In this document: positions 1-32,000 of the stretch, in pieces
Position numbering within the stretch: position 1 is the first letter of the stretch
Layout: each line of letters begins with the position of its first letter
NCBI RefSeq assembly: GCF_000756615.1
Contig: NZ_CP009288.1
Span: forward strand, 4,289,000-4,320,999
DNA: 32,000 nucleotides
DNA from: Paenibacillus durus
Lineage (GTDB): Bacteria; Bacillota; Bacilli; Paenibacillales; Paenibacillaceae
Reading direction: 5' to 3'
Notes under the pieces: generated by a model
Told to the model about the DNA's origin: nothing
The model's input: the letters and a program-made list of their open reading frames with translations, nothing else
Database searches by the model: none
Position numbers and translations under genes: made by a program

Positions 1-351
1 ACAGAACGTGATTGGAAACAGACTCCAGAACTGAGCTATAACAAGAGTCAGGCATCTACAATTTTCCGGTATTGCTGATGCCTTATTAAGATAGACGCTC
101 TAACTGGAATAAAGTTGCACAAATTGGAAATAAATTTCCTGTCCAAATGAGATGTTCTCCTATAGAAATGCTTTTGCTTCATCATTTGTCGTTTTCTAGC
201 CACTGTTGGAACGCTTCTAATGTTAGAATTCCACGTACACATGAATCTCGTTGTTCCCGCGCCTTCTCTAACCACTCATATAAAGCTTCTTTTGTAATCT
301 TTCCATACTTAATCCAGGCCAAACGCTTCCTATATGCCTTGCGGTATGCCT

Positions 352-756
352 TTAACGCCGGGCTTTCGGCTTTTTTCTTCTCTTTCCAATCTCCTTGCAG
401 GTATGTCCTGCCGCGTCATAAGGCCTGTTGTAATATTCCGTATTGAAGTAGGTTGCCATCTTTTTCTGAATGGGTTCGTCCGGTGAAAGGATATCCAGCA
501 CGTGGCTCCACAAATTCTGGTTTTGTCCCTGCATCGTCTGGATGTTAGGGGGGATGTGGGTGACTTTCTTGTAAGGCAAAAGCTCTACAATGTCCCGATA
601 CTCCTGCTGCCGCGCCTGCTCCAACCGCTTCAGCCAATCCAGTCGCAAAAACTCAAAATAAATATGTCGCGTCACAAACGCATCAAGCCCCTCTCGAATC
701 TCGTTTTCCCATTGGCTCTCTTTGCTGTAATACAACTTTCGAATCGCTTCCCCCAT
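352..756 (-). CDS. hypothetical protein with Lys/Arg-rich C-terminus; possibly the 5' part of a frameshifted longer gene
   Basis: 134-codon ORF from the track; I recognise no motif. After its stop, another minus-strand frame stays open (..KAYRKRLAWIKYGKITKEALYEWLEKAREQ..) down to ~150, which hints at a broken gene. Confidence 0.3.
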   Translation of the reverse strand: MGEAIRKLYYSKESQWENEIREGLDAFVTRHIYFEFLRLDWLKRLEQARQQEYRDIVELLPYKKVTHIPPNIQTMQGQNQNLWSHVLDILSPDEPIQKKMATYFNTEYYNRPYDAAGHTCKEIGKRRKKPKARR

Positions 757-910
757 TTCTTCGGTAAGTTCCCTTAGCGATTCTGTATTCAGATCGAAAC
801 TCCATCAAGCTTTGTGAAAAGGAAGACTGACCTACTTAGTCCGGGAAGCGGAGCCATATATAAAGTGTACTTTTCCATCGGATAGGTAGACATTTTCCAA
901 AATTGACGCA

Positions 911-937
911 TAAAAAACCGCGCTGTGAGTGCGCGGT
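911..937 (-). terminator. rho-independent terminator after the receptor/pro-peptide pair
   Basis: Minus strand reads ACCGCGC-ACTCACA-GCGCGGT followed by TTTTTTA. The 7-bp GC stem is 917-923/931-937 and the T-tract follows it. It lies 30 nt after the small ORF stop. Confidence 0.75.
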
Positions 938-966
938 CTGTTCTATCAGCTATTCAGACTCGATTT

Positions 967-1086
967 CTAACCTCCCAATCCATGCGTTAATGGCTCAATT
1001 AATGCGCTGTTAGGGTCAACAATAAGAGCCGAAGTAAGGAGCAACAAACTACCGGCGATCAGCCAAATGGTCAGCTTTTTTCTCAC
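967..1086 (-). CDS. secreted signalling pro-peptide candidate (39 codons), partner of the adjacent HTH-TPR receptor
   Basis: Not in the ORF track (GTG start, <60 aa). My hand translation is (M)RKKLTIWLIAGSLLLLTSALIVDPNSALIEPLTHGLGG*. GGAGGTG at 1094-1100 sits 7 nt upstream of GTG 1084-1086. The product has a basic N-terminus, a hydrophobic core and a polar C-terminal tail. It overlaps the receptor's 3' end by 38 nt in another frame and is followed by a terminator. Confidence 0.6.
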   Translation of the reverse strand: MRKKLTIWLIAGSLLLLTSALIVDPNSALIEPLTHGLGG

Positions 1087-2428
1087 ACTTCTGCACCTCC
1101 CTTATTAATCTTTTATACTCCTTTTGTTGAATTGTTGATGCCACGTACCGATACTGCTCAAATAGCCCAATACACCTCAAGATATTGTGCTCACTCCCAA
1201 TTTTAACAGAAAATTGCAAACTTCTCAGAATGTAATCTAATCCGAACTGCCACCTATTTGTGCGCAAATAATAAGTCGCCAACTCAATTTGGAAGCACGC
1301 ATGCCGATCTTTGGTTATTTGTTGATTCAACTTTCCTAATCGGCTTCGCTGATCATAGTAGTCTAATTTTCCTTGAAATCGCAACAAAACATCGTCTATA
1401 TCAATCTGATACAGGTTTGCCGCTTGCACAATCTTGTACAGGGCTGTCGGTATCTCATCCGGACGTAGTTCTACATAGTCCACATACTCCCTCAGAACCT
1501 CCACCTCTCCAGACATCAGGCGATATACATATATATTGGCGGTGCTCCATTCCTGGAACTGGCTAACCACTCTTTGTTCATCTTCAGTATATTCGCTATA
1601 AGAAGATTCTCCAATGTTGCTATAAAGAGATGTATAGTAAAGAGCCTGTCTATAATCACTTCGCTCATCGTAGACTGCTGCTTTGAGTAAGTACGAATAA
1701 AGAATATAATATATCAGAGGCCGTTCCGGCTGCTTATCCAACGAATACTTCGGATGCATCTTAGCTTTCTCCTCCATTTTATCCGCTAAATTCACGACCT
1801 TCTCCCAGCGGTGTAAAGAAGCATATACATCTGCGAGTCTCTTTAAAGCATCTAGCTGATCGGCGTCGTCAAGCCGGTCCACAAAAGGCTCGAACCGATG
1901 GGCAACCTGCAGATTTATGTCCTGATCATCTCCAAGACCAAGCGTAAACAATCGGTATTGACATAAAGCGAGACGTTCTGAATGCTGAAGCCGCTCTCCT
2001 TCAGCTACGCATTCATAGAGCAATACCGCTGCATCTTTGAAGCCTAAAGCAAGAAAGGTCTCAGCCGTCTCGAATAACATTGGCAGATACATTAAATTCT
2101 CCGTGAGGAATGAAACAATACGCTTCATGCAATCAAGCTTTTCCAGTTCAGCACAGCGATGTAGCAAGGGTCTCACTCGCCGCCAATTCGGTCGCATATT
2201 CAGAATGTAATCGTTGATGTACTGATCATAGAAAATACCTGCTTTCTTTTGCATTCCCATCGTAATTATGTCGAGATGATGAATGGAGATCGGACGATGG
2301 CCATGTACCAGATTGCTGAGTGTAATGGGATTCAAACCAGAACCCTCTGCAAATTGGGTGATCGTTAACTTTTTCTCAAGTAAGTAATCTTTTAAAACGT
2401 TTAAAATGGATGTCCCTTCCGTGCACAC
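1049..2428 (-). CDS. RRNPP-type transcriptional regulator (N-terminal XRE-family HTH plus long TPR-like helical repeat domain)
   Basis: 459 aa with a GTG start preceded by GAAGGG. The N-terminus LTITQFAEGSGLNPITLSNLVHGHRPISIHHLDIIT looks like an XRE HTH. The remaining ~390 aa are helical-repeat-like, rich in Y/L/A, with the size and layout of PlcR/NprR/AimR-like receptors. Confidence 0.65.
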   Translation of the reverse strand: MCTEGTSILNVLKDYLLEKKLTITQFAEGSGLNPITLSNLVHGHRPISIHHLDIITMGMQKKAGIFYDQYINDYILNMRPNWRRVRPLLHRCAELEKLDCMKRIVSFLTENLMYLPMLFETAETFLALGFKDAAVLLYECVAEGERLQHSERLALCQYRLFTLGLGDDQDINLQVAHRFEPFVDRLDDADQLDALKRLADVYASLHRWEKVVNLADKMEEKAKMHPKYSLDKQPERPLIYYILYSYLLKAAVYDERSDYRQALYYTSLYSNIGESSYSEYTEDEQRVVSQFQEWSTANIYVYRLMSGEVEVLREYVDYVELRPDEIPTALYKIVQAANLYQIDIDDVLLRFQGKLDYYDQRSRLGKLNQQITKDRHACFQIELATYYLRTNRWQFGLDYILRSLQFSVKIGSEHNILRCIGLFEQYRYVASTIQQKEYKRLIREVQKCEKKADHLADRR

Positions 2429-2794
2429 AATAACCCTTCACCACCATATTTCCAAATTGTGTATTCTCTATGTCCCAATATTACACTGGTCAATATCAGG
2501 AAATCCATACCATATTGAATGTTTTTGAAAGTTATCCACAATTTGTGTATTGGTGCGCCAAAAAAATAGCGAACCGCTTAAACCGTTTTACGCTGTCCCC
2601 TCGGGGTCTTTACCTTGCACTTAATAGGAAAATTCAAGTGTCGATTTCGTGTTTCGTTTGCGGTATAAGGTCCTCATCCCTCTAATAATACAAGTAACCT
2701 AATCTTTCAAGAAAAGGTATTCCTTCTAATCAACAATCCAAGTTTCAGAAGTTACATTGCCGCCTGGCAATGACACCTAAATCAGATTGTCGGA

Positions 2795-2947
2795 CATCAG
2801 TTAAGCAATATTCTACCGCGTCATAATCTTTAATCATCAAAAAAAGGCCTATCTTCATGTATTTTGCATAAAATAGTCTGTAAAGGATTCATAAAGATTT
2901 ACATCAAAAACTTATTTGTTATTTTACTCCCTTATAGTTCAAATGGA
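2795..2947. repeat. 153-bp direct repeat, copy A (partner at 4071-4223)
   Basis: My manual alignment to 4071-4223 shows about a dozen differences over 153 bp. This copy contains a decayed version of the terminator hairpin and a remnant of the 3' end of the SMI1/KNR4 gene (..PFEL*). Confidence 0.85.
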
Positions 2948-2957
2948 TTTGGTATCT

Positions 2958-3470
2958 TCAAAAATAATATTCGGTTTCAAAATCTCCGAAAAAAGTTGGA
3001 GTAGTTTCTTCTCTCTTTAGTAAGAGTTCAAACATCAGTTCCTCATGATCCTCTTTTTCTCCACATAAAATATCTACCGAATACCAACCGTTGTCAATAT
3101 TGAATGTCAGACTATTATTCGAATTAATTGAATCTATGTTTTTAAAAAAACCTATCCCCACAATACAAAGTTTTTCTGAATATGTATAGTATATCCAACC
3201 AGAGGATCTTGCTTTTATTTCCTCTTTTTTCAATTCTAATGAATCTTCATCAAAGACAACATTAAAATTATAATAACCAGTGTTAACTCCTATAATCGGT
3301 ATAGCTATTCCATTTTTAGTAATAATCTCACCATGATCGGTTTCTGTAAAGTATTGCAAAACATCACTTTCTAATAAAACATTATTTTCCAAGTATTTCT
3401 TTAGTACTGCAGGTTCATATACTACAAATCCGTTGAGTTCAGAAAACAAGCTTTTTATTTTAATCGACAT
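2958..3470 (-). CDS. putative immunity protein, orphan module; same family as 12191-12769
   Basis: 170 aa, AT-rich, immediately downstream of an rhs C-terminal toxin remnant. It shares blocks with the 192-aa protein at 12191-12769: GIAIPIIGVN / GAWIPFVPIN and CIVGIGFFKNID / WIAGLGVFLDFN. Confidence 0.55.
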   Translation of the reverse strand: MSIKIKSLFSELNGFVVYEPAVLKKYLENNVLLESDVLQYFTETDHGEIITKNGIAIPIIGVNTGYYNFNVVFDEDSLELKKEEIKARSSGWIYYTYSEKLCIVGIGFFKNIDSINSNNSLTFNIDNGWYSVDILCGEKEDHEELMFELLLKREETTPTFFGDFETEYYF

Positions 3471-3548
3471 CCTTTTTTCGATATTTTGTTATGCTATTCC
3501 ATTAATGAATCACAAGCTTGTGATGGTGTAACATTGTGAGCAATTACT

Positions 3549-4030
3549 TCACCAGTACCTGGAATTTTTAGACCGCCTATAAATATCATCAACATCTTTT
3601 AATCCTTTTTTAGAGGCTTCAAATAACTCTTCTGCGGTACCTTTCCATCGCCCTTGCCTTGGACCTACGTGAGGCTTTTGAGCAGCATGAATTCTTTCGT
3701 GAGGACCTTCCACATATGTTTCTTTGAAAAAGAATGTAGGAGTAGATTGATACGATGCTAAATGATCCAAAGCAATACTTTTTGCTTTTCCAGCATAAAC
3801 AAGGTGATGTCCACTCTTACTAGGATTGATTCCATGGGAAGAGTCCCATAGAATCAATCCATGAATTTTGATCATGTACATAGCTATACAGCACCATCCC
3901 GCCATTATAGATCACGATCCATGGTGATGTGAGTGCCCACCTTGATCTAGCCAGCTCGTCGTATGTCCACGTTCGGACGCCGCCCTCGGGATCGGTCATG
4001 TTCATGATCCATCCGTCGTCTCCATACTTT
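3549..4030 (-). pseudogene. orphan rhs C-terminal fragment: end-of-core motif plus GHH-signature toxin domain, frameshifted and 5'-truncated
   Basis: Frame 1 reads ..TDPEGGVRTWTYDELARS..NGGMVLYSYVHDQNSWIDSMGL, matching the main Rhs ..AGNNPTLYGYVGDPNRNVDVFGL. Around 3845-3850 the sense continues in another frame: SSHGINPSKSGHHLVYAGKAKS..HERIHAAQ..WKGTAEELFEASKKGL. That matches the main toxin GMGHHLMP..IHKQLH..FTGTADEFFDKAMKAY. There is no start codon or SD. Confidence 0.7.
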
Positions 4031-4223: not shown

Positions 4224-4741
4224 TAAATATCCGACAGCCCTTCTTTGATTTTTTCAACTTCACCAAGCAATTCTTGTCTGTACTCGTTTTTAAGATTCAA
4301 ATTTTCATCAAAGTAAATATCGGCTTGTGTGTCTAATAATTCTTCCATTTGCGATATAAGATCAGCCAATATAAACCATTCTTTTAAATCTACAGACATA
4401 TTTAATATATTTGCAGATTGAAAGTCTTCTGTATCATGATCATAAAAATAAACAGTACTATCAAAAGTGTTACTTAAATTAATTAACCAAAAATCACCTT
4501 GTCCAGTTTCCGCAAATATCCACATGTTCTCGTCGAATTCTGCAAAATCTTTGTGATAGTCTTTATTTTACTGCTTTGCTTTTTCATACGAAAGAAGAAC
4601 ATAGTCTGCGGATATTTTGTTTTCAGAAAAACTTTTACAAACCCACAAATAATCTTCTGGAAATTGTTCGTTTACAGAAACTGGTTTTTTCCTTTTTTGC
4701 AAACCATTTGCTATTTCCTCGTAGTTTCTCTTTTTAAACAT
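4202..4741 (-). pseudogene. SMI1/KNR4 (SUKH-type) immunity gene with an in-frame TAA stop
   Basis: ATG at 4739-4741 follows GAGGTGAGG. The translation is MFKKRNYEEIANGLQKRKKPVSVNEQFPEDYLWVCKSFSENKISADYVLLSYEKAKQ*NKDYHKDFAEFDENMWIFAETGQGDFWLINL..VYFYDHD.. The TAA lies at 4568-4570, and the track ORF 4202-4525 is the same frame downstream of it. The motif pattern (GDFWLIN, YFYDHD) is typical of SUKH immunity proteins. Confidence 0.6.
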
Positions 4742-5329: not shown

Positions 5330-5551
5330 ATGAAAAAGCAATTGGCAATTTCAATGCAAGGAAGTACTGTGCCAAAATTTACTCCAGCGATACTAGAAAA
5401 GTTGGAAATCAAGTTTCCAAGTATTGAGAAACAACGGACGATTGGTAAAGCTTATTTCATTTTGAGAAAGCGTCAAGCTTTGGCAAAGAAACAAGCAGAA
5501 CTTGAAGAGCAACTTTATTTTGAAGTATTGAAGCAATTAGACCAACAATAG
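5330..5551 (+). pseudogene. hsdS: type I restriction specificity subunit (HsdS) fragment
   Basis: The 73-aa ORF ..QGSTVPKFTPAILEKLEIKFPSIEKQRTIGKAYFILRKRQALAKKQAELEEQL.. has the HsdS conserved-region pattern (P-x-(I/L)-x-E/K-Q-x-x-I then a coiled coil). There is no target-recognition domain upstream. Confidence 0.55.
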
Positions 5552-5570
5552 AAAAAGTGAGGAACGCAAC

Positions 5571-6665
5571 ATGGCTGAATTAAACTCAAAATTATTTAGT
5601 GCCGCAGACAACTTGCGAAGCAAGATGGATGCATCGGAATACAAAAATTACTTGTTAGGATTAATCTTTTACAAGTATTTATCTGATAAATTATTAGAAA
5701 AAGTTGTTGAAATAGCAGATGAATCGCTAGAAGAATACAACACACAAGAAAAACAAATTCAATTATATAGGGATTTATTGGCAGATAAAGATGTAAAAAA
5801 TGACTTAATTGAAACATTAGTAGATACATTGGGCTATGATATTGAACCAGATTATTTATTCAATGAATTAACCAATCAAGCAAAACAAAATACGTTTCAG
5901 TTGAATGACTTGAATAAATCCTTTATTGATTTGTCTACGAAATATGACCAATTCAACGGATTATTTGATGATGTGGATTTGAAATCAAAAAAATTGGGAT
6001 CAGATGATCAACAGCGGAACATTACCATTACAGAAGTCCTGAAGAAACTAAATAATATCGATGTGATAGGACATAATGGCGATGTGATTGGGGATGCCTA
6101 TGAGTTCTTGATTGGTCAATTTGCTTCAGAAGCTGGCAAGAAAGCTGGTGAATTCTATACACCTCATGAAGTTTCTGACATGATGGCTCGTATTGCCGCA
6201 ATAGGTCAAGAAGACAAAAAATTGTTTAGCGTATTTGACCCGACCATGGGATCAGGCTCCTTGATGTTGAATATTCGAAACTATATTAACCATCCAGATA
6301 GTGTAAAGTATCACGGACAAGAACTAAATACAACGACCTATAATCTAGCGAAGATGAACTTGATCTTGCATGGTGTTAATAAAGAAGATATACGTTTACG
6401 CAATGGGGATACATTGAACAAGGATTGGCCGACAGATGAGCCTTATACTTTTGATTCGGTCCTTATGAATCCACCCTACTCTGCAAAATGGTCTGCAGAC
6501 GATACATTTTTAGATGATTCTCGTTTCAATCGTTATGGGAAATTAGCGCCACAAGATTGTTCCGAGTGGCGAACTACATTACGAGTTTATTTTTCAGAAT
6601 CTAGAAAAGCGGTACGAGGAGTTACGTTTGATTTCATCGGGAGATGGGACTCGTGGGGGTCTTAA
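5571..6665 (+). pseudogene. hsdM: type I R-M methyltransferase HsdM, C-terminally truncated by a deletion
   Basis: The N-terminus LFSAADNLRSKMDASEYKNYLLGLIFYKYLSD, the AdoMet motif FDPTMGSGS and the catalytic NPPYS are all present. After ..RYGKLAPQ (~6550) the sequence becomes unrelated (DCSEWRTTLRVYF..) and stops at 364 aa. Typical HsdM proteins are clearly longer. Confidence 0.75.
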
Positions 6666-6831
6666 CAAACAACTAGTCTTTGATGTAGAAATATTGTCAC
6701 CATCTATTCAAGAACAAATCAAAATAGGTAGCTTTTTCAAACAAATTGACGACATTATCGCTCTTCATCAACGCGAATTAGATGCCTTGAAAGAAACGAA
6801 ACAAGCATTCCTACAAAAGATGTTTGTCTAA
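6547..6831 (+). pseudogene. hsdS: HsdS 3' fragment fused to truncated hsdM by a deletion
   Basis: A frame open from 6547 reads ..IVPSGELHYEFIFQNLEKRYEELRLISSGDGTRGGLNKQLVFDVEILSPSIQEQIKIGSFFKQIDDIIALHQRELDALKETKQAFLQKMFV*. This is the characteristic HsdS C-terminal conserved region. It has no start or SD of its own except an internal TTG. Confidence 0.65.
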
Positions 6832-6854
6832 GCAAACAGAAGAGAGGAAGAAAC

Positions 6855-9800
6855 ATGACAAAGATACCACATAACAATGAGGATGAAGTGGAACGTCGCC
6901 TGATTGGAGTGTTAGGGGAAGGGCATAATCAGTGGAATTATCGTCCGGATTTAAAATCTGAAGAAGACCTATGGAAGAACTTGCGTCAGAAAATTACGCA
7001 AAATAACTTATCAGAAATTGGAGATCATACAATTTCTGATAAAGAATTTGACACGATTAAAACAGAGTTACTATCAAAAACACAGACACCCTTTGATGCT
7101 GCTAGATGGCTCAAAGGGGAGAATGGAATTGCTCGTATTACGATTGAACGTGAAGATGTATCTTTAGGTTCGATGTCTTTAGTGCTATATTCCAATCAAG
7201 ACATTGGTGGCGGAATCTCTACATATGAAGTCGTTCATCAGATTGCGAAACAAAAGGTAAACGTTGATGATCGTGATCGCCGATTTGACGTGACACTCTT
7301 AATCAACGGGTTGCCAATTGTTCAAATTGAATTGAAACAAATCAGTGCTAAAGACGGCGTATTTCAAGCCTATAATCAAATTAAGAAATACGCAGAAGAA
7401 GGAATGTTTAGAAATAATATCTTTTCTACTCTTCAGGTATTTGTCATTTCCAACGAACAAACGACTCGCTATTTTTCCAATGCGATGCCAAAAGACATGC
7501 ATAAGAAATTTGTCTTTAGTTGGCGGACATCGGACAATCGAAAAGTAGAAAATCTCTATGAATTTGTAAAACAGTTCTTAAATATTCCAGATGCACATAG
7601 ATTGATTGCCAATTATACGATTGTTAGCGAGGACCAGGACAACAAAGCATTAATGGTATTACAGCCTTATCAAATTCATGCGATTGAAGCCTTGTTTACA
7701 TCTGCAATGAAACATGAATCTGGATATGTTTGGCATGCGACCGGTTCAGGAAAAACGTTGACAAGTTTTGTTTCTACGAAGTTATTAGCTCGCAAACCAG
7801 GTGTAGATCGTACAATTATGCTCATTGACCGAAAAGACTTGGATAATCAAACGACGACAGAATTTACTAAATTTGCTTCCGAATTTAATACCGGTATTTC
7901 TTCTGGTAAAGCCAAGTCTAATAGCTTGATTGTCGGAACCGGAAGTGCGAAAGAACTAAGTAATACTCTACTATTTGATGCCAATTCCAATACAGTGATT
8001 ATTACCACTCGTCAAAAATTAGAAGCTGCCTTACGCTATGCCCAAAGGCAAGAGGATCGAAAAGGTACCCAACGATTTAAGAAGCTACTGGGGCAACATA
8101 TTGTCTTTGTCGTGGATGAATGCCATCGAGCGTTGAGTGCTGAAGGGATGGAAGAGATTAAGGGATTCTTTCCAAACTCTACATGGTTTGGTTTTACAGG
8201 TACGCCGATATTTAATGAAAATAAAAAACAAGCTAAAGGCCAATTAGCTCGCACCACTCGTGATCAATATGGAGAAGTTTTGCACACTTATACCATTAAG
8301 AATGCATTGGATGATGGGGCCGTTCTAGGGTTCCAAGTAGAGCATGAAGATACGATTGAACCCACATCATTAAATAATTATATCTTTAATCAACTGCGTG
8401 CAAATGGAAAATATGCCGATTTTAGTGATGATGAAATTAACGATATGATCGATCAAATGGATGGCGTGCAAAAGGAAGCATATCTTGAACCATCTTTTTT
8501 TGAACGTGATGAACATATTAAAAAAGTCATTCATAAGATTTTTCGACCAGATAATGCTTATATCAAATTTGATTTCCAAAACGGTCGCCCGCAGAAGTCT
8601 GCCATCTTAACAACTAAATCCATTGATATGGCGAAACGCTACTATCAGGCAATCAAGGAAATGACCAAAGATCCAGAATGGTTGACGAAAGAATTTGCTG
8701 GACATCCGATCCGAACAGGGCGTACGATTGAAGATCCGAACTTCCCTCGTATTGCCGTCACCTATTCGATACAAGAAAACGAAGATAATTCCAAACAAAT
8801 TCAAGATGAAATGAAAGAAATTATTAAGGACTATAACGATTATTATAATACAGCTTGGTCGATAGAAGATATTGAACGATATAATGGCGATATCAACAAT
8901 CGTTTAGCTCGTAAGAAAGCAGAATTCAAAGAATTTGGGAAACAAATTGATCTTGTCATTGTTGTAGATCGCCTATTAACTGGATTTGATGCACCCACGA
9001 TTCAAACGTTATTTGTGGATCGAAATTTAAGTTATGCCAATTTGATTCAAGCCTTTTCTCGGACTAATCGTACCTATCCCGGGAAGATAAAAGGATTAAT
9101 TGTAACATTCCGAAAACCTTCGACAATGGAACAGAATGTAGAAGATGCCACGAAGTTATATTCTCACGCACAAGAGGAATCTAATCTTGTTTATCCAACA
9201 TATGATGAGTCGAAGAAACGCTTCCAAAAGGCTCACAAAACATTGAAAAAACTGGTGCCAAATCCAACCGACATTAACGAGCACTCTCCACTTGAAACTC
9301 GGATTGAATTTGTGAAAGTTTTTCAAGAACTAAATAATGCTTACGAAGCTTTAGTAACGTATGATGATTACAACGATGAAATAGAGAAATCAAAAGTCCT
9401 CCAAGAACAGGTCAAGACCCTAGAAGAATATTTTGGCGTATACAACACGGTTAAGGGATCGCTAGTTGTTGAAGGGGAAGATGGACCTGATCCAAATTTC
9501 TCGGACATTGAATTCTATGGAGAAAATGCGGTTAAGATTTATGATATTGACTCAACCTATATTGACCGTTTATTAGAAACGTACTCAGCCAATAATCAGA
9601 ATATCCGTGACGAGATCGAAATAGCACTTCAAAAACTGAAAAAATCAGAAATTGTTAAAGAAGTATACCGCGCGATTTTAAACGCCATTGATGCCAAAGA
9701 AATAAATTCAGAGGAAGATACTTTTGTAGTGAAACGACGTTTCTTCACCGAATCCTATAATAAAGCGATTGGAGAATTTGCGAAAGCTTGGTTTGTGGAT

Positions 9801-10010
9801 GAAGGAGAGCTGCATTCATCTGCTGTTCAATATGTAATAGGATCAGAACCTATTCCAAATATCGGGGGAATTATTGACAGCAAGCAATTTGATAAGTTTA
9901 AAGCCGTACATCCAGATGTAAAACCGTTAAAATACGGGCCAGAAATGAAGCGTCAGTGGAGAAAGACGTTAGATGAAGTCATTGTTCCTTTGAAGGATGA
10001 GTTGAGATAA
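6855..10010 (+). CDS. hsdR: type I restriction enzyme R subunit (HsdR), apparently intact
   Basis: 1051 aa. Helicase motif I is HATGSGKT and motif II is VVDECHRA. Length and N-terminal nuclease-region layout are typical of HsdR. AGAGGAAGAAAC precedes the ATG. Confidence 0.9.
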   Translation: MTKIPHNNEDEVERRLIGVLGEGHNQWNYRPDLKSEEDLWKNLRQKITQNNLSEIGDHTISDKEFDTIKTELLSKTQTPFDAARWLKGENGIARITIEREDVSLGSMSLVLYSNQDIGGGISTYEVVHQIAKQKVNVDDRDRRFDVTLLINGLPIVQIELKQISAKDGVFQAYNQIKKYAEEGMFRNNIFSTLQVFVISNEQTTRYFSNAMPKDMHKKFVFSWRTSDNRKVENLYEFVKQFLNIPDAHRLIANYTIVSEDQDNKALMVLQPYQIHAIEALFTSAMKHESGYVWHATGSGKTLTSFVSTKLLARKPGVDRTIMLIDRKDLDNQTTTEFTKFASEFNTGISSGKAKSNSLIVGTGSAKELSNTLLFDANSNTVIITTRQKLEAALRYAQRQEDRKGTQRFKKLLGQHIVFVVDECHRALSAEGMEEIKGFFPNSTWFGFTGTPIFNENKKQAKGQLARTTRDQYGEVLHTYTIKNALDDGAVLGFQVEHEDTIEPTSLNNYIFNQLRANGKYADFSDDEINDMIDQMDGVQKEAYLEPSFFERDEHIKKVIHKIFRPDNAYIKFDFQNGRPQKSAILTTKSIDMAKRYYQAIKEMTKDPEWLTKEFAGHPIRTGRTIEDPNFPRIAVTYSIQENEDNSKQIQDEMKEIIKDYNDYYNTAWSIEDIERYNGDINNRLARKKAEFKEFGKQIDLVIVVDRLLTGFDAPTIQTLFVDRNLSYANLIQAFSRTNRTYPGKIKGLIVTFRKPSTMEQNVEDATKLYSHAQEESNLVYPTYDESKKRFQKAHKTLKKLVPNPTDINEHSPLETRIEFVKVFQELNNAYEALVTYDDYNDEIEKSKVLQEQVKTLEEYFGVYNTVKGSLVVEGEDGPDPNFSDIEFYGENAVKIYDIDSTYIDRLLETYSANNQNIRDEIEIALQKLKKSEIVKEVYRAILNAIDAKEINSEEDTFVVKRRFFTESYNKAIGEFAKAWFVDEGELHSSAVQYVIGSEPIPNIGGIIDSKQFDKFKAVHPDVKPLKYGPEMKRQWRKTLDEVIVPLKDELR

Positions 10011-10023
10011 AATCGTTTTGAAA

Positions 10024-10838
10024 TTAATGTTTTTCTTTAAAAGGAGTCAGAGTCGCAGAAATGAACGGGCATGCGCCGCGTGCTCCTTGAAGGTCAAAAT
10101 TCTGAACCTTCCCATAGATGTCCAGTTCGCACGCCCAGATACGTTCTCCAACTTCGTTATACATCTCCACAGGCGTACCGATGTGGTCTGTAACGATGCT
10201 GTACTGGCCATCGGTTGTTAGTTTCGCTGCCGGGCTAAACGTTCCGTCTTCAAACACCCATTTAGTGAGTGATTGCGGATCTTCTTTCCACTCATGCAGA
10301 ATCGTATTTCCATCCCACACAAAGCTTGTCTTGACCCCATCATACACTTTTTCAATCAGTCTTCCAAGCGGGTCATACGTGAACGTTACTTCTTTGCCGT
10401 CCGGTCGCACAACCCGGCTCATCATCCCGTTGCCGTAGTATTCGAAGCGCCAATGCGTGCCGTCCGGCTCGATTTTCTCAACCAGATTGCCTTCTTCGTC
10501 GTAACTGTAATGCGTTCCCTCGAATTCCAGAAGACGCCCGCCGGGACCATATGTCCGGTCGGTTTTGTGGCCGCTGCTGTACAAGTTGCCCACATCATCG
10601 GCCATGCGGAAGATCTTGCCGAAGGGATTCGTTGCCCCGATCAGATTACCGAAATCATCATAGTTGTACTGGGTTTTGTGTCCGGTCAGTTCGTTCACCA
10701 TCGACTTCAGACGGTAGTTGACGTTCCGTCCGTACCTTCTCCTGTGGCTTTCTCTTCCGCCTGTCTTCACGCTATACTGTTCAGGCCGTCCGGCTTCATC
10801 ATTCCGCCACTCGCTGATTACGCCGCCCGTAGTGAAAA
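10024..10838 (-). pseudogene. orphan rhs core fragment (YD repeats), 5'- and 3'-truncated
   Basis: It translates to ..TTGGVISEWRNDEAGRPEQYSV..NYRLKSMVNELTGHKTQYNYDDFGNLIGATNPFGKIFRMADDVGNLYSSGH..WVFEDGTFSPAAK..TDHIGTPVEMYNEVGERIWACELDIYGKVQN..CPF. This is colinear with main Rhs residues ~1437-1730. It begins directly after a terminator, has no SD, and its homology ends at 10063. Confidence 0.85.
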
Positions 10839-24985: not shown

Positions 24986-25479
24986 TTACATGGCTTTATG
25001 AAATTTCGAGGAGTCCTCCAGTGTCTTGACCCATTCTGAAAACCTCGCAGGAGGCATTAACTTCAAGCTGCCATGCATCTTGCGGTTGTTGTAGAAGTCC
25101 ATATATTGATCAAGGGCCTCGTAAGCTTCCTCGAAGGTCCTGAACTCTGTTTGGCTGAATAGATCGCGTTCCAATAAGCTATGAAAGGATTCAATGTATG
25201 CATTCATATTTGGTGTCCGTGGCGGGATGCGTTCGTGAATCATCTCCAGGCTTTCACAGGTATCTCCAAATAACTTACTGACGAATTGCGGTCCGTTATC
25301 TGTTCGAATCACGGGCAGGGCTTCTCCGGATTGGAGACGACTCTGTAGCGCCCGCCATAGGGTTTGGACCGCATGTTTGGCCTCACATACGGGTCCTCTG
25401 TACTGCTGGACCACGACACGGTCAAATACATCAATGATACTAAGCACGAAAAAGAAACGTTCCTGACCGATGATGTAGC
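24986..25479 (-). CDS. IS3 transposase OrfB, 3' exon (rve/DDE domain, second Asp and Glu)
   Basis: ..YIIGQERFFFVLSIIDVFDR..VIRTDNGPQFVS..NAYIESFHSLLERD..YNNRKMHGSL.. It is in frame with exon 1 when the intron (25480-27765) is removed. Confidence 0.8.
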
Positions 25480-27765
25480 GTGAAGTAAGAGACGGGGCGT
25501 AGTCGAACTATTTCCCCGTTTCTCCTTCCCGAACCGGACATGCACCTCTCAGCGCATCCGGCTCTCCATTTAAGTGTTGCTCATAGCAAAGGCGACATCA
25601 TCATAATAGGATTCAATAGTTCGTCGTTTGTCTGAACGTAGGATATATGGATTTTCGGTAGGGTTTCGCCATGTGAACCAACCTTTGCGGCTAGTGATTA
25701 GCCTTCTCAGTGCTAGTTCACCATAGAATCCGCGACTGTTCTGACCCTGCAGTACCCAGATTTTAGCCTTTCCTTTTTCTGGTGAGCGGACATAATCTCG
25801 CATCAAAGCTCGGAAGCCACGCTTGTACTTTCTTGCCAGCCAGTAGCCGAGTTTCCAGAACACCGCGCGATCTACTTTACCGAATATCGTCGCTGTATGG
25901 TCTGTGTATTGATAAAAGTTTGCCCATCCTGCAAGTTGTCGGTTTAGGCTTTCGACCAAGTCCATAACGTTCATGCTGTAATTTCCCGACAATTGCTTGA
26001 CAAGTTTTTCCGTGAAGCGGCGGTATTTCTCCCATGGAATGGATGAGACAGGGCGCATTCGTCCCCGAGCCCCACGTTTGCGAATGATACGATGTCCGAG
26101 GAAGACAAAACCGTCATTGACGTGCGTGATATGCGTTTTCTGCATGTTGAGCGTGAGTTTCAACTTATCTTCGAGAAACTCCCGACATGCTTCACGAACT
26201 TCTTCTGCATGTGCCTTGGTTCCTTTGACAATCACCACAAAATCATCCGCATAGCGGCAGTACGAAATAGCTGGCTTCCACTGCCGATTTTCACGTATCG
26301 CGATAGGGCGCTCTTTCTGAATGCCGAAGTTCCAAGCCCAGCGATCTTTTCGTACCTTCTTACTCAGAAATTTCGCTTCCATCCATTGATCAAATTCGTG
26401 TAACATTATATTGGATAGGAGGGGCGAGATAACCCCACCTTGCGGAACTCCCTCGCTTGAGGCGCGAAATAAACCGTGGTCTACGCATCCTGCCTTGATC
26501 ATCTTCCATATCAAGGAAAGGAATCTCTGGTCAGAGATACGTTTACGGACAGCCTTCATGAGCAGCCGATGGTGTACGGTATCGAAATAACTCGCCAAGT
26601 CTCCTTCAATGACCCAGCGACCGGCGGTTGCGTTCAGTTGTTCATTTCCATCTTGCAATTGCATTTTGACAGTACGAATTGCATGATGTACGCTCCGTGC
26701 AGGTCTGAAACCATAGGATACCGGATGGAAATCACTTTCCCATATCGGCTCCATTACCATCAGCATTGCCCTTTGCACGATACGATCTCGAAGACATGGA
26801 ATACCTAGCGGTCTGAGTTTGCCATTGGCTTTAGGGATATATACTCGTCGGGCAGGTTGCGGACAGTATCTTCCGCTCAGCAGTTCATAGTGTAACATTT
26901 CCAGTTCTAGATCGAGCTTTCCTTCCATCTTACGCCTGTCTACGCCGTCTACGCCCGGTGTTCGAGCGCCGCTTGAAGCGAGAGTGATACGAGCCGCTTC
27001 ACTTAACCAAGACCTGTCAGCAATTAGTCTGATTAGTCGGTCGAACTTACGATCCTTGTTTTCTGTTGACCATGTCGCCAGTTTGCTTTGCATTTCACTG
27101 ATTATCAAAGGTCTTCACCTCACTAGGGTCAGTTAATGAGCCAAGCAAACCACTTAAACTGCCTCCCTTCGCCATGTAACCGGCTTTCCCGATCTCAGAC
27201 TACTACGGAGGCTCCGTCATTCTGCATAGCATCGGGGAACTCACTCCCTTGGCATCTATGCAGACTTTCCCCAGTTCACATGCTGGACTCCACACATGGG
27301 TTAGGCTGCCTATCGCAGTCTTTATCCTTGCATTCTGCAAGTCGTCGCGGACATCGCGGTCTAGCTATGCACTCTCCGTGAATCCCATCCGGTCAACTTA
27401 CATGTTTGACCGGATTTCGTGAATGCCGTCAATGCGGCTAACGGCAGTTCAGTCCGTGACCTGCCTGTTAAGCGATGTAGGCAGGGGTGACATTTCAACC
27501 CTCAGATGCGGTTTAATAGGTTTGTGTTCCTCAGCCTTCCCATGCTCAGCCTAGAGACTCATCTTGGCGTAATCGCTTCGCCGCAAGCCCCGTTTCCCGC
27601 GGACTACGTCACCTTGCCAGTGTCGGCAAGTCACCGCCGCTTCGGCTCACTTCTTCTCACAGCAGAAGAAGGGCATGTCTGTAAAAAAAAAAAAAAATCT
27701 CAACATGCATTCCAAACATGCTCGAGTAACTTGTTCCATTACAGGAACTTGTTAGCTGGGCGTAC
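25480..27765 (-). mobile_element. group II intron (2286 nt) with RT/maturase ORF in domain IV
   Basis: - The 5' end, GUACGCCCAGCUAAC, matches Ll.LtrB GUGCGCCCAGAUAGG as I recall it.
- It has a conserved CGUAGUAGUCUGAGA..UACAUGGCGAAGGGAGGCAGUU block.
- Domain V is GAGCCGGAUGCGCUGAGAGGUGCAUGUCCGGUUC (25531-25564).
- Domain VI ends ..CUCUUACUUCAC, with an A 7 nt from the 3' end.
- Removing it joins the flanks in frame. Confidence 0.85.
25570..27108 (-). CDS. group II intron-encoded reverse transcriptase/maturase (no obvious HNH endonuclease domain)
   Basis: 512 aa; TTG start after GAGGTGA. RT blocks include ..TPGVDGV.., ..RRVYIPKANGKLRPLGIP.., ..GVPQGGVISPLLSNI.. and YCRYADDFVVIV (the YADD motif). 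A maturase-like region follows. The C-terminus lacks Cys/His endonuclease motifs. Confidence 0.9.
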   Translation of the reverse strand: MIISEMQSKLATWSTENKDRKFDRLIRLIADRSWLSEAARITLASSGARTPGVDGVDRRKMEGKLDLELEMLHYELLSGRYCPQPARRVYIPKANGKLRPLGIPCLRDRIVQRAMLMVMEPIWESDFHPVSYGFRPARSVHHAIRTVKMQLQDGNEQLNATAGRWVIEGDLASYFDTVHHRLLMKAVRKRISDQRFLSLIWKMIKAGCVDHGLFRASSEGVPQGGVISPLLSNIMLHEFDQWMEAKFLSKKVRKDRWAWNFGIQKERPIAIRENRQWKPAISYCRYADDFVVIVKGTKAHAEEVREACREFLEDKLKLTLNMQKTHITHVNDGFVFLGHRIIRKRGARGRMRPVSSIPWEKYRRFTEKLVKQLSGNYSMNVMDLVESLNRQLAGWANFYQYTDHTATIFGKVDRAVFWKLGYWLARKYKRGFRALMRDYVRSPEKGKAKIWVLQGQNSRGFYGELALRRLITSRKGWFTWRNPTENPYILRSDKRRTIESYYDDVAFAMSNT

Positions 27766-28243
27766 CGTACTTGATGTCCATTTGCCACAACTGGTTGGAC
27801 CCGGTGACGACCCGGTTCTTGGGGAGCCGGCGTGGATGTGAGGGGAGGCGCTTACGGGATTGCCTCAGAATCCCTAGATCTTTACACAAGCGATAGGCTT
27901 TCTTCTTGTTCAGCTTTACGCTGTACCGGTTACGAATACATTGCGCAAGAAGTTTGTAGCCATAGACATGCTCTTCGCCTTCGAGGAGCTCAAGCAGCCA
28001 TTCCTTGATTTGTTCGTCACTGACTTTCTCTCCCGTAACCGTAAAGGAGTAGCCCGGCACCGGACGTCCCATCTGGCCTTCTGATGGGCGTTTTGTTGCC
28101 GGTCGGGCAGCCCGTTTTTTACGATCATAGTACGTCGATTCAGATAATCCAAGTATTCGCAGAACCCGTGCTACCGGTTCCCCCCGCTTAATAAATAGGT
28201 CTGCTACTTCGAATTTTTCGGATAAGCGGGGTCTTTCTTTTTT
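27766..28243 (-). CDS. IS3 transposase OrfB, 5' exon (reached by -1 frameshift from orfA)
   Basis: The -1 frame from the slippery site reads KKERPRLSEKFEVADLFIKRGEPVARVLRILGLSESTYYDRKKRAARP..GRPVPGYS..EHVYGYKLLAQCI..NQLWQMDIKYG with no stop. It ends at the intron 5' splice site, four codons after the first catalytic Asp (QMDIKY). Confidence 0.75.
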
Positions 28244-28533
28244 AGCAGTTCTCGTAGAATCTCAAGCTCAAGTTCTTTTTCCCCGAGCACCTTCATGGCC
28301 TTTTCGTAGCGCTGTTCCACATCCTGAAGTCGCTGAAGTTCTTGCAGATGCTCGTCTGCAACCGGAATTTCTTCGGGTGGAATGGAGTCACGATGATCCC
28401 TAATCCATCCGCGTATGGTTTCTGGATGGATGTCGTACATGCGGGATAATACCCCCACCTTAACTCCAGCCAACGCTTCCTTAACGATTTTAAGCCGTGC
28501 TTCCTCTTTCAGCCTCTTTCCCATCCTCGTCAT
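28204..28533 (-). CDS. IS3-family transposase OrfA (HTH plus leucine-zipper-like region)
   Basis: 109 aa: ..EEARLKIVKEALAGVKVGVLSRMYDIHPETIRGWIRDH.. followed by a coiled coil, LQELQRLQDVEQRYEKAMKVLGEKELELEILRELLKKK. The true start may be the second ATG (28524). Confidence 0.85.
   Translation of the reverse strand: MTRMGKRLKEEARLKIVKEALAGVKVGVLSRMYDIHPETIRGWIRDHRDSIPPEEIPVADEHLQELQRLQDVEQRYEKAMKVLGEKELELEILRELLKKKDPAYPKNSK
28237..28243 (-). promoter_or_regulatory. programmed -1 ribosomal frameshift site A AAA AAG
   Basis: Minus strand reads CTG CTA AAA AAG AAA near the end of orfA. The -1 frame is open from here into orfB. A AAA AAG is the classic IS3-family slippery heptamer. Confidence 0.75.
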
Positions 28534-29116
28534 CTCTCCCTTATCTCTAGTTTAAATTATTGGGTGGGAGGACTCCAGTTTAATTAGGGGGCCTAGGAGG
28601 TTAAGGAACAAAAATGGATTTTCTTTTAGGAAACGAAAGTGATTGATAAAGCCGCGACTGGATGCTAGTGCCTCACTTATTTTGGGTGCGCGGCCGATCT
28701 GGATTCAGCTTCAAGAAAAAGTGTGCATCATTAAAGAACCTGCTTTACTAGACTGTGCAACCTTGATCTGTAGTAACGACACGGCACCATTACTATTGAA
28801 AAAAGTAACCTGGGCTTGAATCTCATGATCGTTGACAGAAAGGGGGATGAAAATGAGCAACTTTGAACTCACCTTGGCCAGCCAGGAGATCAAGCATTTT
28901 AAATTATTCGGCAGTTGAATGAGCATGCGCGTATCTGATTTACTGCTGTTATCCCTGACGTACATCTTGAGAAGTACATGCAAATGAGCACTTGTATCCT
29001 GCGGAAACAAAGTGCTCATTCACACTAATAATACGAAGCCACCCGTTAGATAACAGGCGGCTCTTGTTCAATGTGGGGAAAACAGGTAGAATTCAAGCCT
29101 ACCTCCGTTGCAAAAC

Positions 29117-30072: not shown

Positions 30073-30849
30073 TTATTGGAGCAGCGTGACACTTTCCGCT
30101 ATGTCCAGAAACTGATTTTGGCTTAATCCCGTATGTTCACCCATGAACATGAATAATTGGGAATGCTTTTGCCAGATGACAGTCCACTTGTCTCCTTTTC
30201 GGATAATAATCCCTTGCGACCCTTGAACTGTAGTTTGAATGACCTCATCGGCATCCTCAGTATCTACATTCGTGCCACTGCCTTCTCGTTTTTGTTGGAA
30301 CAAAATGTACCCTCCGTTGTCATGGGCATACTCGATCCCTTTCATATTCTCAAGGTTTGTCACATTGACAATGTGATAATCTTCCGGGATTCGTATCGGA
30401 ACATAGGCATGCTCCCAATTGATTTCCAGATGGTTCCCGGTTACCTCATCTGCATTTTGACGTCCCAATCGGATTTCCGTATATTCGTCTTGCAGTTGAA
30501 CAAACAGAGTAAACACTTTAACACGCACCGCCTCTACTGTCATGGAAGATACGGCCAACAATACAAGCAACAAGGAACAAACAAGCGCCGTTTTCTTTGA
30601 ACCTATAAAACATATTCTGACCATCTTTTTGATCTGAAGGAACGCAAGATGGCGATTCAATCGCTTCAGGAACTTGTTTCTCTCTGCTTCCGTCGGAAGA
30701 AAAAAGGGATTCCGATGCATTTCCTCATTCTCTTCCAGAAGTTTTTTCCCTTCTTGCTCCACGTAGCTGGCCAGAGCCAGCTTCAATTGGATCTCCTCGT
30801 ACTCTTCCATAAGTGAAGTCCGATCCATCGAATTATTCGATTTCGCCAT
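30073..30849 (-). CDS. anti-sigma-factor-like membrane protein with DUF4367-type extracellular domain
   Basis: 258 aa. It overlaps the sigma gene by 17 nt. It has a single TM segment (ALVCSLLLVLLAVSSMTV). The C-terminal pattern PEDYHIVNV..IEYAHDNGGYILFQQK..DTEDADEVIQTTVQGSQGIII..WTVIWQK..LFMFMGEHTGLSQNQFLDIAESV is typical of DUF4367 proteins encoded next to ECF sigma factors in Firmicutes. Confidence 0.65.
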   Translation of the reverse strand: MAKSNNSMDRTSLMEEYEEIQLKLALASYVEQEGKKLLEENEEMHRNPFFLPTEAERNKFLKRLNRHLAFLQIKKMVRICFIGSKKTALVCSLLLVLLAVSSMTVEAVRVKVFTLFVQLQDEYTEIRLGRQNADEVTGNHLEINWEHAYVPIRIPEDYHIVNVTNLENMKGIEYAHDNGGYILFQQKREGSGTNVDTEDADEVIQTTVQGSQGIIIRKGDKWTVIWQKHSQLFMFMGEHTGLSQNQFLDIAESVTLLQ

Positions 30850-31414
30850 CCTGCTCCCCCCTTTCTTTAGTTAATGCAGCCTGGGCACGAGGCCGGGCAC
30901 GGGTTAAATACCCCTGGATATTTCGAATTGGAATGTCCATGATGCTGGCGATTTCTTTATCCTTCAGTCCCATAAGATATTTGTAAACCAGCAGATGCCG
31001 ATCTCTTTCCGGTATGTACTCCAAGGCTCTGCCTAACGCCTCATAGCTCTCCCTTTTGATCGTTTGTTCTTCCGGCGAGGCTTGGGCATCCGCAACTTCT
31101 TCTACAGGATCGACCGTTCCATCCATCCTCAATTTTTGAGAACCGCGGGCTTGCTTACGAATATGATCCATACAAACACTTCTAATGGTATAAACGATAT
31201 ATGACGTTCTTTTACAACTGTCCAAAGATTGTAAAAGAGATATTTTGGGGACTAATTTTATAAAAGCATCCTGAAAAAGATCACCCGTGATTGCATAATC
31301 CCTAACCATGTCGTATGCTTTCTTTTTCATTAATGGATAGTACTGCTGGTATAAATCGGTCATGTAAGCCCGGTCACTGTCATCTTCAATCATGGATATA
31401 AACAAAGGGAGCAT
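30833..31414 (-). CDS. ECF-type sigma-70 family RNA polymerase sigma factor
   Basis: 193 aa from ATG 31412-31414, preceded by GGAGGTG. The region 2-like stretch is DLFQDAFIKLV. The region 4 HTH is LLVYKYLMGLKDKEIASIMDIPIRNIQGYLTRAR. Confidence 0.8.
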   Translation of the reverse strand: MLPLFISMIEDDSDRAYMTDLYQQYYPLMKKKAYDMVRDYAITGDLFQDAFIKLVPKISLLQSLDSCKRTSYIVYTIRSVCMDHIRKQARGSQKLRMDGTVDPVEEVADAQASPEEQTIKRESYEALGRALEYIPERDRHLLVYKYLMGLKDKEIASIMDIPIRNIQGYLTRARPRAQAALTKERGEQDGEIE

Positions 31415-32000
31415 ACGACACCTCCGTATTAGAGAGTAAGCCAAAACAGCAGGCATTCAAAAAGTAATCGGCAGATGTCTGTTATGACCCTCCCTTTGTG
31501 TAATCCCGCGGCCATTGAACTGCTGGCTTATATTTTCTACTATATCTCTCCTTTAGTTTCCAACAAGTTCAAAATATCACATTTTCTTATAAATGAGCGT
31601 GCTTAAGCAAGCTCGACTAATAAATATAGAGCATCAGCATGCTTTAAGCCGGGAGATAATCCTGGTTTAGACTGTTTTCATTCAGATGATTCGGATTCAA
31701 AGCTTTTCTGTTTTATGCATTCGGTGTGACTTCTTGTATATTAAACGACGCTAGCATAGCTTTTGTTGCTTATGCCGTAGTCTATGCTGCTGCCACCCTC
31801 TTCTTGCCGCTGCGATTTCCCGCACCAAGGTCATGCGCATTCACTCTATAGCTTACTTGGTTACATACGCTCCCCGGGGATCGCGATCAAATGAACATTG
31901 GGATGATGGCCTTCATTGTGAAACGCCGCATACTATCTCAGGTTGTTCGGGTGGAATTTCAATATGCAATATCTCATTTCGCTGGCTACGTAGCAGCGCC

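Follow-up and report, generated by a model that had tools for sequence, protein, structure and literature searches.

We examined a 32,000-nucleotide (nt) stretch of the Paenibacillus durus chromosome (NZ_CP009288.1, positions 4,289,000 to 4,320,999; hereafter the window, whose own numbering is used throughout for its features). The locus at 967-2428, on the minus strand, is very probably an aloR-aloP cassette. It would then belong to the Alo group, a subfamily of the RRNPP type of peptide quorum sensing, with a gene for a DNA-binding receptor followed by an overlapping 39-codon gene for a putatively exported pro-peptide. Alo (autoinducer peptide locus) systems of the Paenibacillaceae were defined by Voichek et al. 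in 2020 (PMC7425212), have already been surveyed across the Paenibacillaceae, P. durus included, and are handled as an established RRNPP subfamily in later surveys (PMC10075063, PMC9765709). The locus is a poorly annotated, ordinary member of this published family and not a new system; what is new about it is limited to an aloP that had gone unannotated, together with the signal predicted from it, the lack of the Spo0E-like target usual in the family, and some family-wide regularities.

The receptor and the overlapping pro-peptide gene

The receptor gene, aloR, is an open reading frame (ORF) with its GTG start at 2428 and its stop at 1049; it encodes a cytoplasmic receptor and transcription factor of 459 amino acids (aa). 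An earlier note made from the letters of this DNA had described a helix-turn-helix (HTH) protein with a long helical-repeat domain, and both halves of that description were borne out. Residues 12-54 (2267-2395) form an XRE-type HTH (Pfam HTH_3 at 23.6 bits, just over its cut-off of 23), and a profile of the receptor family matched XRE-type regulators and C-proteins (controller proteins) in PDB at E 5e-4. An AlphaFold2 model built with 62 homologues (pLDDT 91.5, pTM 0.87) has five N-terminal helices and then 18 more; the latter belong to a predicted tetratricopeptide repeat (TPR)-like superhelical domain at residues ~82-458 (1055-2185), presumed to bind the peptide. When the model was compared with PDB by Foldseek, only TPR proteins were returned, at a probability of 1.00 and E 2e-4 to 1e-2, with RapH at rank 5 and RapF at rank 19. 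The comparison thus supports a TPR-like fold in the modelled structure and does not alone single out RRNPP receptors. Sequence and profile searches of PDB yielded HTH matches only, and no solved AloR relative was found among them. The best structural match to the model in BFVD was S5MC02, an unnamed viral protein (E 2.8e-13, TM 0.66-0.71).

The small gene, aloP (967-1086, minus strand), starts with GTG at 1086, ends with TAG at 967-969 and encodes MRKKLTIWLIAGSLLLLTSALIVDPNSALIEPLTHGLGG. Its first 38 nt (1049-1086) are dual-coding, being read in a different frame as the 3' end of aloR. The Shine-Dalgarno sequence GGAGGTG (1094-1100) lies 7 nt before the GTG, within the receptor codons for E-V-Q, and these three residues are kept in the receptor consensus sequence. 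An intrinsic terminator, comprising an 8-bp GC-rich hairpin and TTTTTT, follows at about 910-938, some 30 nt past the aloP stop; its minimum free energy is -17.5 kcal/mol, with a modest z-score against shuffled sequences (-1.8), and the hairpin is retained in P. durus ATCC 35681, where the outer stem pair has changed from A-U to G-C. The GTG start, the overlap, the spacing of the Shine-Dalgarno sequence and the terminator had all been called by the earlier note, and each was found where it had placed it. The sequence supports a single predicted operon of aloR and aloP, from about 2628 to 910 on the minus strand, and a putative 39-aa pre-pro-peptide with a strong ribosome-binding site (RBS) of its own inside the end of aloR. 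An Rfam search of window positions 1-3500 gave no match.

The AloP product has the layout expected of an exported pro-peptide. A predicted signal (1018-1086) consists of an n-region, M-RKK, with a net charge of +3 and an h-region of 19 residues, LTIWLIAGSLLLLTSALIV, with a mean Kyte-Doolittle hydropathy of 2.29; candidate -3/-1 cleavage sites, assigned by heuristics only, fall after LTS or TSA. By heuristics only, this n-/h-region arrangement matches that of the published AloP pro-peptides, and the export signal proposed by the earlier note held up to that extent. The C-terminal nine residues, EPLTHGLGG (970-996), carry the conserved core with the predicted mature signal, THGLGG or a longer form.

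The earlier note's remark that the small gene is unannotated was roughly right. No called gene in the gene records has exactly the window's 39-aa product, and the gene map of the window's genome recorded neither the receptor (P0001) nor this exact peptide as a called gene. The receptor is labelled only as a 'helix-turn-helix domain-containing protein', and for the sister strain ATCC 35681 the orthologous ORF of 39 aa was annotated in two assemblies but missed in CP011114.1.

Membership in the Alo family and relation to other RRNPP systems

Homology of the receptor to known AloR proteins carries the assignment. A protein search with the window receptor returned 901 homologues, every named one from Paenibacillus; the top match was 100% identical and named Paenibacillus durus, and a second P. 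durus protein (P0002) was 91% identical. Voichek et al. accepted AloR homologues at E<1e-10 and a length of at least 250 aa (PMC7425212), and Bernard et al. (2023) at a minimum of 30% identity and 80% mutual coverage to a reference AloR (AloR13); here homology was judged against AloR11 and against a relative that appears in Table S2 of the Voichek study. The AloR11 reference was located through its peptide. On the P. polymyxa ATCC 842 plasmid NZ_CP024796.1, the ORF downstream of WP_029515185.1 overlaps the receptor by 35 nt and encodes MKKKMVFFLAVSFGLMFVASAQLPFEQHQASGLISTQGYIGGA, the published AloP11 detected by mass spectrometry (MS); because the two products are identical, WP_029515185.1 is AloR11. 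The window receptor is 43% identical to it over 441 of 459 aa (E 8e-120). Receptors of the P. polymyxa group (e.g., L057) are 45-46% identical to the window's, and the peptides encoded next to them are identical or nearly identical to the published AloP16.

Two entries of Table S2 also bear on the assignment. The P. wynnii receptor P0015 (JQCR01000002.1, 1502544-1503932, minus strand) is ~54% identical to that of the window, and its coordinates are exactly those of the AloR entry Ga0060271_121318. For P. durus ATCC 35681 the table has an AloR homologue of 459 aa on the plus strand (Ga0071013_114811, IMG 4967833-4969212). It is probably P0002, although P0002 lies at 4146733-4148112 in CP011114.1, 821 kb off the IMG coordinates. 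IMG and GenBank coordinates agree exactly for P. wynnii and are 371 nt apart for P. riograndensis.

The locus combines what defines an Alo system, namely receptor homology, an N-terminal HTH, a C-terminal TPR-like domain, a short overlapping ORF that bears a predicted signal, and a host in the Paenibacillaceae. It also has the general RRNPP arrangement of a TPR-type receptor and an adjacent small gene for a predicted exported pro-peptide. A Spo0E-like gene directly downstream, a frequent, non-defining Alo trait, is absent. ORFs for aloP that overlap the 3' end of aloR were explicitly sought in the methods of PMC7425212. With Alo11, Alo16 and Alo13 the locus shares full-length receptor homology (~45% identity to AloR16-type receptors), the pairing of an HTH with a divergent TPR-like domain, the genus Paenibacillus, and an aloP of the 30-50 aa class, whose M-(K/R)KK n-region leads into a hydrophobic helix. 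The C-terminal core is of the same H-G-x-G type, as in SHGRGG of AloP13 and the internal SHGLGG of AloP16. Unlike Alo13, which adjoins a Spo0E-like gene, the P. durus cassette has none downstream, and its aloP starts with GTG rather than ATG. The P. durus ending EPLTHGLGG is absent from the peptide tables of PMC7425212, which cover P. polymyxa and P. terrae only. The earlier note had cited Alo systems as one analogue among several; its RRNPP reading is supported, and the locus turns out to be a member of the Alo family, not merely something like it. Its proposal of a TPR/RRNPP-like receptor fold likewise agrees with the HTH plus TPR-like model and with full-length homology to named and listed AloR proteins.

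Comparison with other RRNPP systems sets the locus apart from each of them. AimR-AimP of Bacillus phages also pairs an HTH and TPR-like receptor with a short secreted pro-peptide, the C-terminal 6 aa of which serve as the signal, and there, as in Alo13, the peptide turns off an activator. In contrast, the setting here is chromosomal, the neighbours are RHS toxin, restriction-modification and insertion sequence (IS) genes rather than phage genes, and no aimX-like downstream transcript is evident at the window locus. The NCBIfam AimR equivalog NF038310 scored 17.5 bits against a cut-off of 70 and aligned with residues 12-105 only, the HTH part; together with the lack of a phage context, this ruled out membership in AimR. 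Rap-Phr of Bacillus appears analogous in its TPR fold, its partly overlapping downstream phr-like gene, Sec-type export and C-terminal mature peptide, whereas Rap has no HTH, acts as a phosphatase or anti-activator, and has no detectable sequence similarity to the window receptor. PlcR-PapR and NprR-NprX of the Bacillus cereus group would be comparable as HTH and TPR regulators with re-imported C-terminal fragments encoded directly downstream. Neither was matched in the PDB and profile searches with the window receptor, and in both the peptide activates its regulator, the opposite of the inactivation seen in the one Alo system tested.

A distant AloR-like receptor occurs in a phage: Brevibacillus phage SecTim467 (L085; KT151957.1, 1149-2972) encodes a protein that is 25% identical across 95% of the query (E 6e-34), right after a gene annotated as Spo0E. 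As a candidate Alo pair it was rejected, since the overlapping 45-aa ORF downstream has no signal-like N-terminus and there is no AloP-like small ORF.

Conservation of the pro-peptide and competing readings

We compared the window with 80 related loci from other species (L004-L083). A small ORF was scored as signal-like and motif-bearing when it had at least two K/R in positions 2-7, a strongly hydrophobic segment, and HGxG in its last 20 residues. Such an ORF was present at the receptor 3' end in 68 of the 80 loci, and 12 had no good small ORF; at 1,473 random control anchors in the same DNA, a signal-like ORF was found 45 times and one that also had HGxG once. Position was similarly constant. 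Among 70 non-redundant loci with a signal-like small ORF (a few re-anchored to an in-frame start at -38), 59 had a small ORF that begins at exactly -38 nt, counted from where the receptor gene ends. Start codons were ATG in 67 cases, GTG in two and TTG in one, and an RBS-like core preceded 71 of 72 homologous small ORFs. In the related loci, as well as in those of P. wynnii and P. riograndensis (L086, L087), the GAGGTG of the aloP RBS falls on the conserved receptor E-V-Q codons.

Because about two thirds of the ORF lies past the receptor stop, in DNA otherwise unalignable across species, this conservation is at the protein level, as the earlier note had expected of a real pro-peptide. It is centred on the C-terminus. 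Across 117 related pairs, which are not independent, the ratio of nonsynonymous to synonymous differing codons was 0.54 in the core (two residues before the H through HGxG), against 1.83 for the linker and 1.68 for the remainder of the h-region. The HGxG core sits one or two residues from the C-terminus in most peptides, with a variable x (L, F, V, W, A, S, T and others). The longer pattern P-[LM]-T-H-G-x-G-G is kept in the nearest clades (QPLTHGWGG, QPMTHGAGG, TPLTHGSGGW). Neither the HGxG core nor the fixed -38 overlap was found stated in the sections consulted of Voichek et al. 2020 (PMC7425212).

Several observations nevertheless count against the locus being a working Alo cassette. Pfam TPR_12 reached only 12 bits in the receptor, below threshold, although most AloR proteins are reported to have a TPR-like domain too divergent for TPR profiles (PMC7425212). 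The Foldseek E-values to TPR and Rap structures in PDB were weak, at 1e-3 to 1e-4, and no AimR, PlcR or NprR structure was among the top 50 PDB matches. The export signal of AloP was assigned by heuristics only (charge, hydropathy and -3/-1 residues). The GTG start of aloP is rare in the family (two of 70, both from P. durus), and between the two P. durus strains the aloP ratio of nonsynonymous to synonymous change (dN/dS) is ~1, with six nonsynonymous and two synonymous differences. Beyond the cassette, no Spo0E-like motif was present within 1 kb downstream in the window or in loci L001-L003, and the DNA past the terminator differs between the P. durus strains, ATCC 35681 having a convergent Dabb gene there.

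Some of these observations could be explained if the receptor were a real AloR whose pairing is decaying or 'orphan', the 39-codon ORF being a remnant whose product has ceased to be made or to signal. The dN/dS of aloP, its unusual start codon and the want of an adjacent target gene would all fit, as would the 12 of 80 related loci with no good small ORF and the orphan receptors described before, orphan or degenerate aloP having been reported for aloR5, aloR14 and aloR18 (PMC7425212). We consider such decay unlikely, given the comparison with ATCC 35681. There the same 39-codon ORF is intact, with identical length, frame and offset, and its last nine codons (EPLTHGLGG) are nucleotide-identical, although the strains differ at 7% of receptor nucleotides; the six aa changes are all conservative and all fall in the signal or linker, outside the core. 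The perfect 7-nt Shine-Dalgarno sequence GGAGGTG, at optimal spacing, is kept in both strains, and the receptor, with a dN/dS of 0.19 against the ATCC 35681 orthologue, appears to be under purifying selection.

A still less probable reading, to which we give very little weight, makes the small ORF a membrane or secreted peptide with another role (bacteriocin-like, or a membrane anchor) and the HTH-TPR protein an ordinary regulator that binds no peptide. The 19-residue h-region could indeed be a transmembrane helix, TPR domains serve many functions, and peptide binding by this AloR is putative; yet the architecture is that of Alo13, which was verified by experiment, and of AloP11 and AloP16, which were detected by MS. 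Moreover, the locus has no double-glycine leader and no genes for a modification enzyme or a transporter beside it, and conservation centres on a short C-terminal core, as expected of a ligand. That the ORF is a chance open frame, assembled from the receptor 3' end and the downstream spacer, is the least credible of these readings. With 39 codons it is short, and it is uncalled in both the window genome and CP011114.1, but chance does not account for the same feature in 68 of 80 homologous loci against one of 1,473 random anchors, nor for an ORF that lies largely in unalignable DNA and yet always ends in HGxG; the comparative test refuted this reading.

Returning to the locus as an Alo cassette, a course of events can be proposed from the better-studied members. 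Supernatant fragments with their N-termini missing were found for nine of 14 predicted AloP peptides, and the verified Alo13 signal is the last six residues, SHGRGG; at 10 nM to 5 uM it switches off the activation that the adjacent spo0E-like gene receives through AloR13 (PMC7425212). By analogy, AloP would be exported through its N-terminal signal, cut within or after the h-region (e.g., after TSA at residue 20), and then shortened extracellularly until only a short C-terminal peptide is left. This peptide would be THGLGG if it has 6 aa like SHGRGG of AloP13, or else a longer fragment of the PLTHGLGG type. At high cell density it would be re-imported and bind the TPR domain of AloR, and DNA binding or activation by AloR would switch as a result; the Alo13 peptide turns activation off. 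Following the same analogy, the P. durus signal is likely THGLGG or a slightly longer C-terminal fragment, and a signal of 7-9 residues is possible because P-[LM]-T-H-G-x-G-G is conserved in the nearest clades. That the two genes form a functional signalling pair, as the earlier note proposed, we infer from these likenesses.

In Paenibacillus sp. 22594 (L015, ~4343-4480), the receptor is 52% identical to that of P. durus and AloP ends in ...MTHGLGG, with the same last six residues. If the signal is a hexapeptide, cross-species crosstalk between P. durus and Paenibacillus sp. 22594 is conceivable.

Surroundings of the cassette and the search for targets

Window positions 897-2628, which hold aloR, aloP, the terminator and the upstream region, are 91% identical to ATCC 35681, and the flanks are unrelated. 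The conserved block upstream of aloR (2429-2628, minus strand), presumably promoter and leader, is nearly identical between the P. durus strains over its last ~130 nt. It contains a palindrome of the form CACAA-A-TTGTG (ATACACAAATTGTGGA, 2535-2550, minus strand), 119 nt upstream of aloR, which is conserved in both P. durus strains only and could be an operator, or nothing. As a clue to the regulon, this palindrome (also given as CACAAATTGTG) was discarded, since it occurs once in the window and is absent upstream of the other 80 receptors.

Downstream, 36 of the 80 related loci have a Spo0E-like gene after aloP (PF09388, E 1e-11 to 1e-14 in four representatives), as do the P. wynnii and P. riograndensis loci, and at least eight of the 80 have a second aloR there. 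Neither gene is present in P. durus or in the clade closest to it (L004-L007). The 134-aa and 40-aa ORFs downstream of aloP gave no Pfam match. A model with an adjacent target was rejected, as no Spo0E-like gene follows aloP and the downstream DNA is not common to ATCC 35681; because there is no Spo0E-like gene downstream, the target genes are probably elsewhere, or the operon itself is the target.

On its other side, the cassette in P. durus borders a fast-changing island. Directly upstream of aloR, on the same strand, lies a 170-aa ORF (2958-3470), possibly an immunity gene, and then an orphan RHS C-terminal toxin tip (about 3497-4026, minus strand) that matches residues 1772-1903 of a 1915-aa RHS protein encoded further along the window (E 1.7e-7). 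Because this match falls in three pieces, frame breaks in the tip are suggested. A second orphan RHS piece occupies 10024-10770. Between the two is a type I restriction-modification locus of damaged appearance (5330-10010, plus strand), made up of a 73-aa HsdS fragment (5330-5551), a 364-aa HsdM (5571-6665; N6_Mtase matched to profile position 164 of 311) and HsdR, intact at 1051 aa (6855-10010).

The polymorphic-toxin cluster proper lies on the minus strand, with genes from 22886 to 12782. First come a 228-aa ORF and a 529-aa VgrG-like protein (Phage_GPD/Phage_base_V), then a pentapeptide-repeat protein, Imm11, DUF4280 (PAAR-like) and the 1915-aa protein, a VgrG-like RHS toxin with a weak N-terminal Phage_GPD match, DUF6531 and RHS repeats. 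A VgrG/PAAR-like delivery module in a Firmicute may merit separate attention. An IS3-family transposase, seemingly split, spans 24986-28533 on the minus strand (HTH_Tnp_1 at 28204-28533, HTH_21 at 27752-28072, rve at 24986-25447), with a group II intron reverse transcriptase/maturase ORF (RVT_1, GIIM; 25570-27108) between its parts. At 30073-31456 (minus strand), an ECF-type sigma factor (Sigma70_r2/r4_2, 207 aa) is followed by an overlapping DUF4367 protein (258 aa), likely a sigma/anti-sigma pair.

ATCC 35681 has a toxin cluster of this architecture too, transcribed divergently from aloR with 365 bp between them, and the VgrG/RHS cluster of the window is only 28-36% identical to it. In the window, aloR marks the conserved border of a larger island of this type. 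A remnant at 28597-28983 (plus strand) is near-identical (72-95% aa; 81% nt) to the DUF4280/VgrG junction of ATCC 35681, which suggests that ~26 kb, with the IS element, the intron, a second toxin cluster, the restriction-modification system and orphan toxins, replaced ~4 kb between this remnant and aloR in the strain of the window. In the closest Alo clade outside P. durus (L004-L011), the neighbours, judged by eye from their sequences, are unlike the island genes and resemble agmatine-deiminase and amidase genes.

The earlier note had remarked that the cassette borders a toxin/immunity array. The adjacency is real; the neighbourhood is unshared by relatives and so does not point to a regulon. 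Because relatives have other neighbours, the position of aloR is weak evidence that it regulates the toxin island. A link between the two was set aside on this ground and on the low identity of the two clusters, and we think it improbable that the Alo cassette was recruited in P. durus as a density switch for the adjacent polymorphic-toxin island (VgrG-like, DUF4280/PAAR-like, RHS). If true, such a switch would tie RRNPP peptide signalling to contact-dependent antagonism in a nitrogen-fixing Paenibacillus.

The locus opens no new kind of biology, and the main gain is an annotation fix: aloP was uncalled and its receptor labelled generically, a gap that is now corrected. The fix also supplies a specific candidate for the signal (...PLTHGLGG) in a diazotrophic Paenibacillus that is of interest to agriculture. 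Across the family, the HGxG core and the -38 overlap with its RBS on the E-V-Q codons could make aloP genes easier to detect automatically and could guide how peptide libraries are designed.

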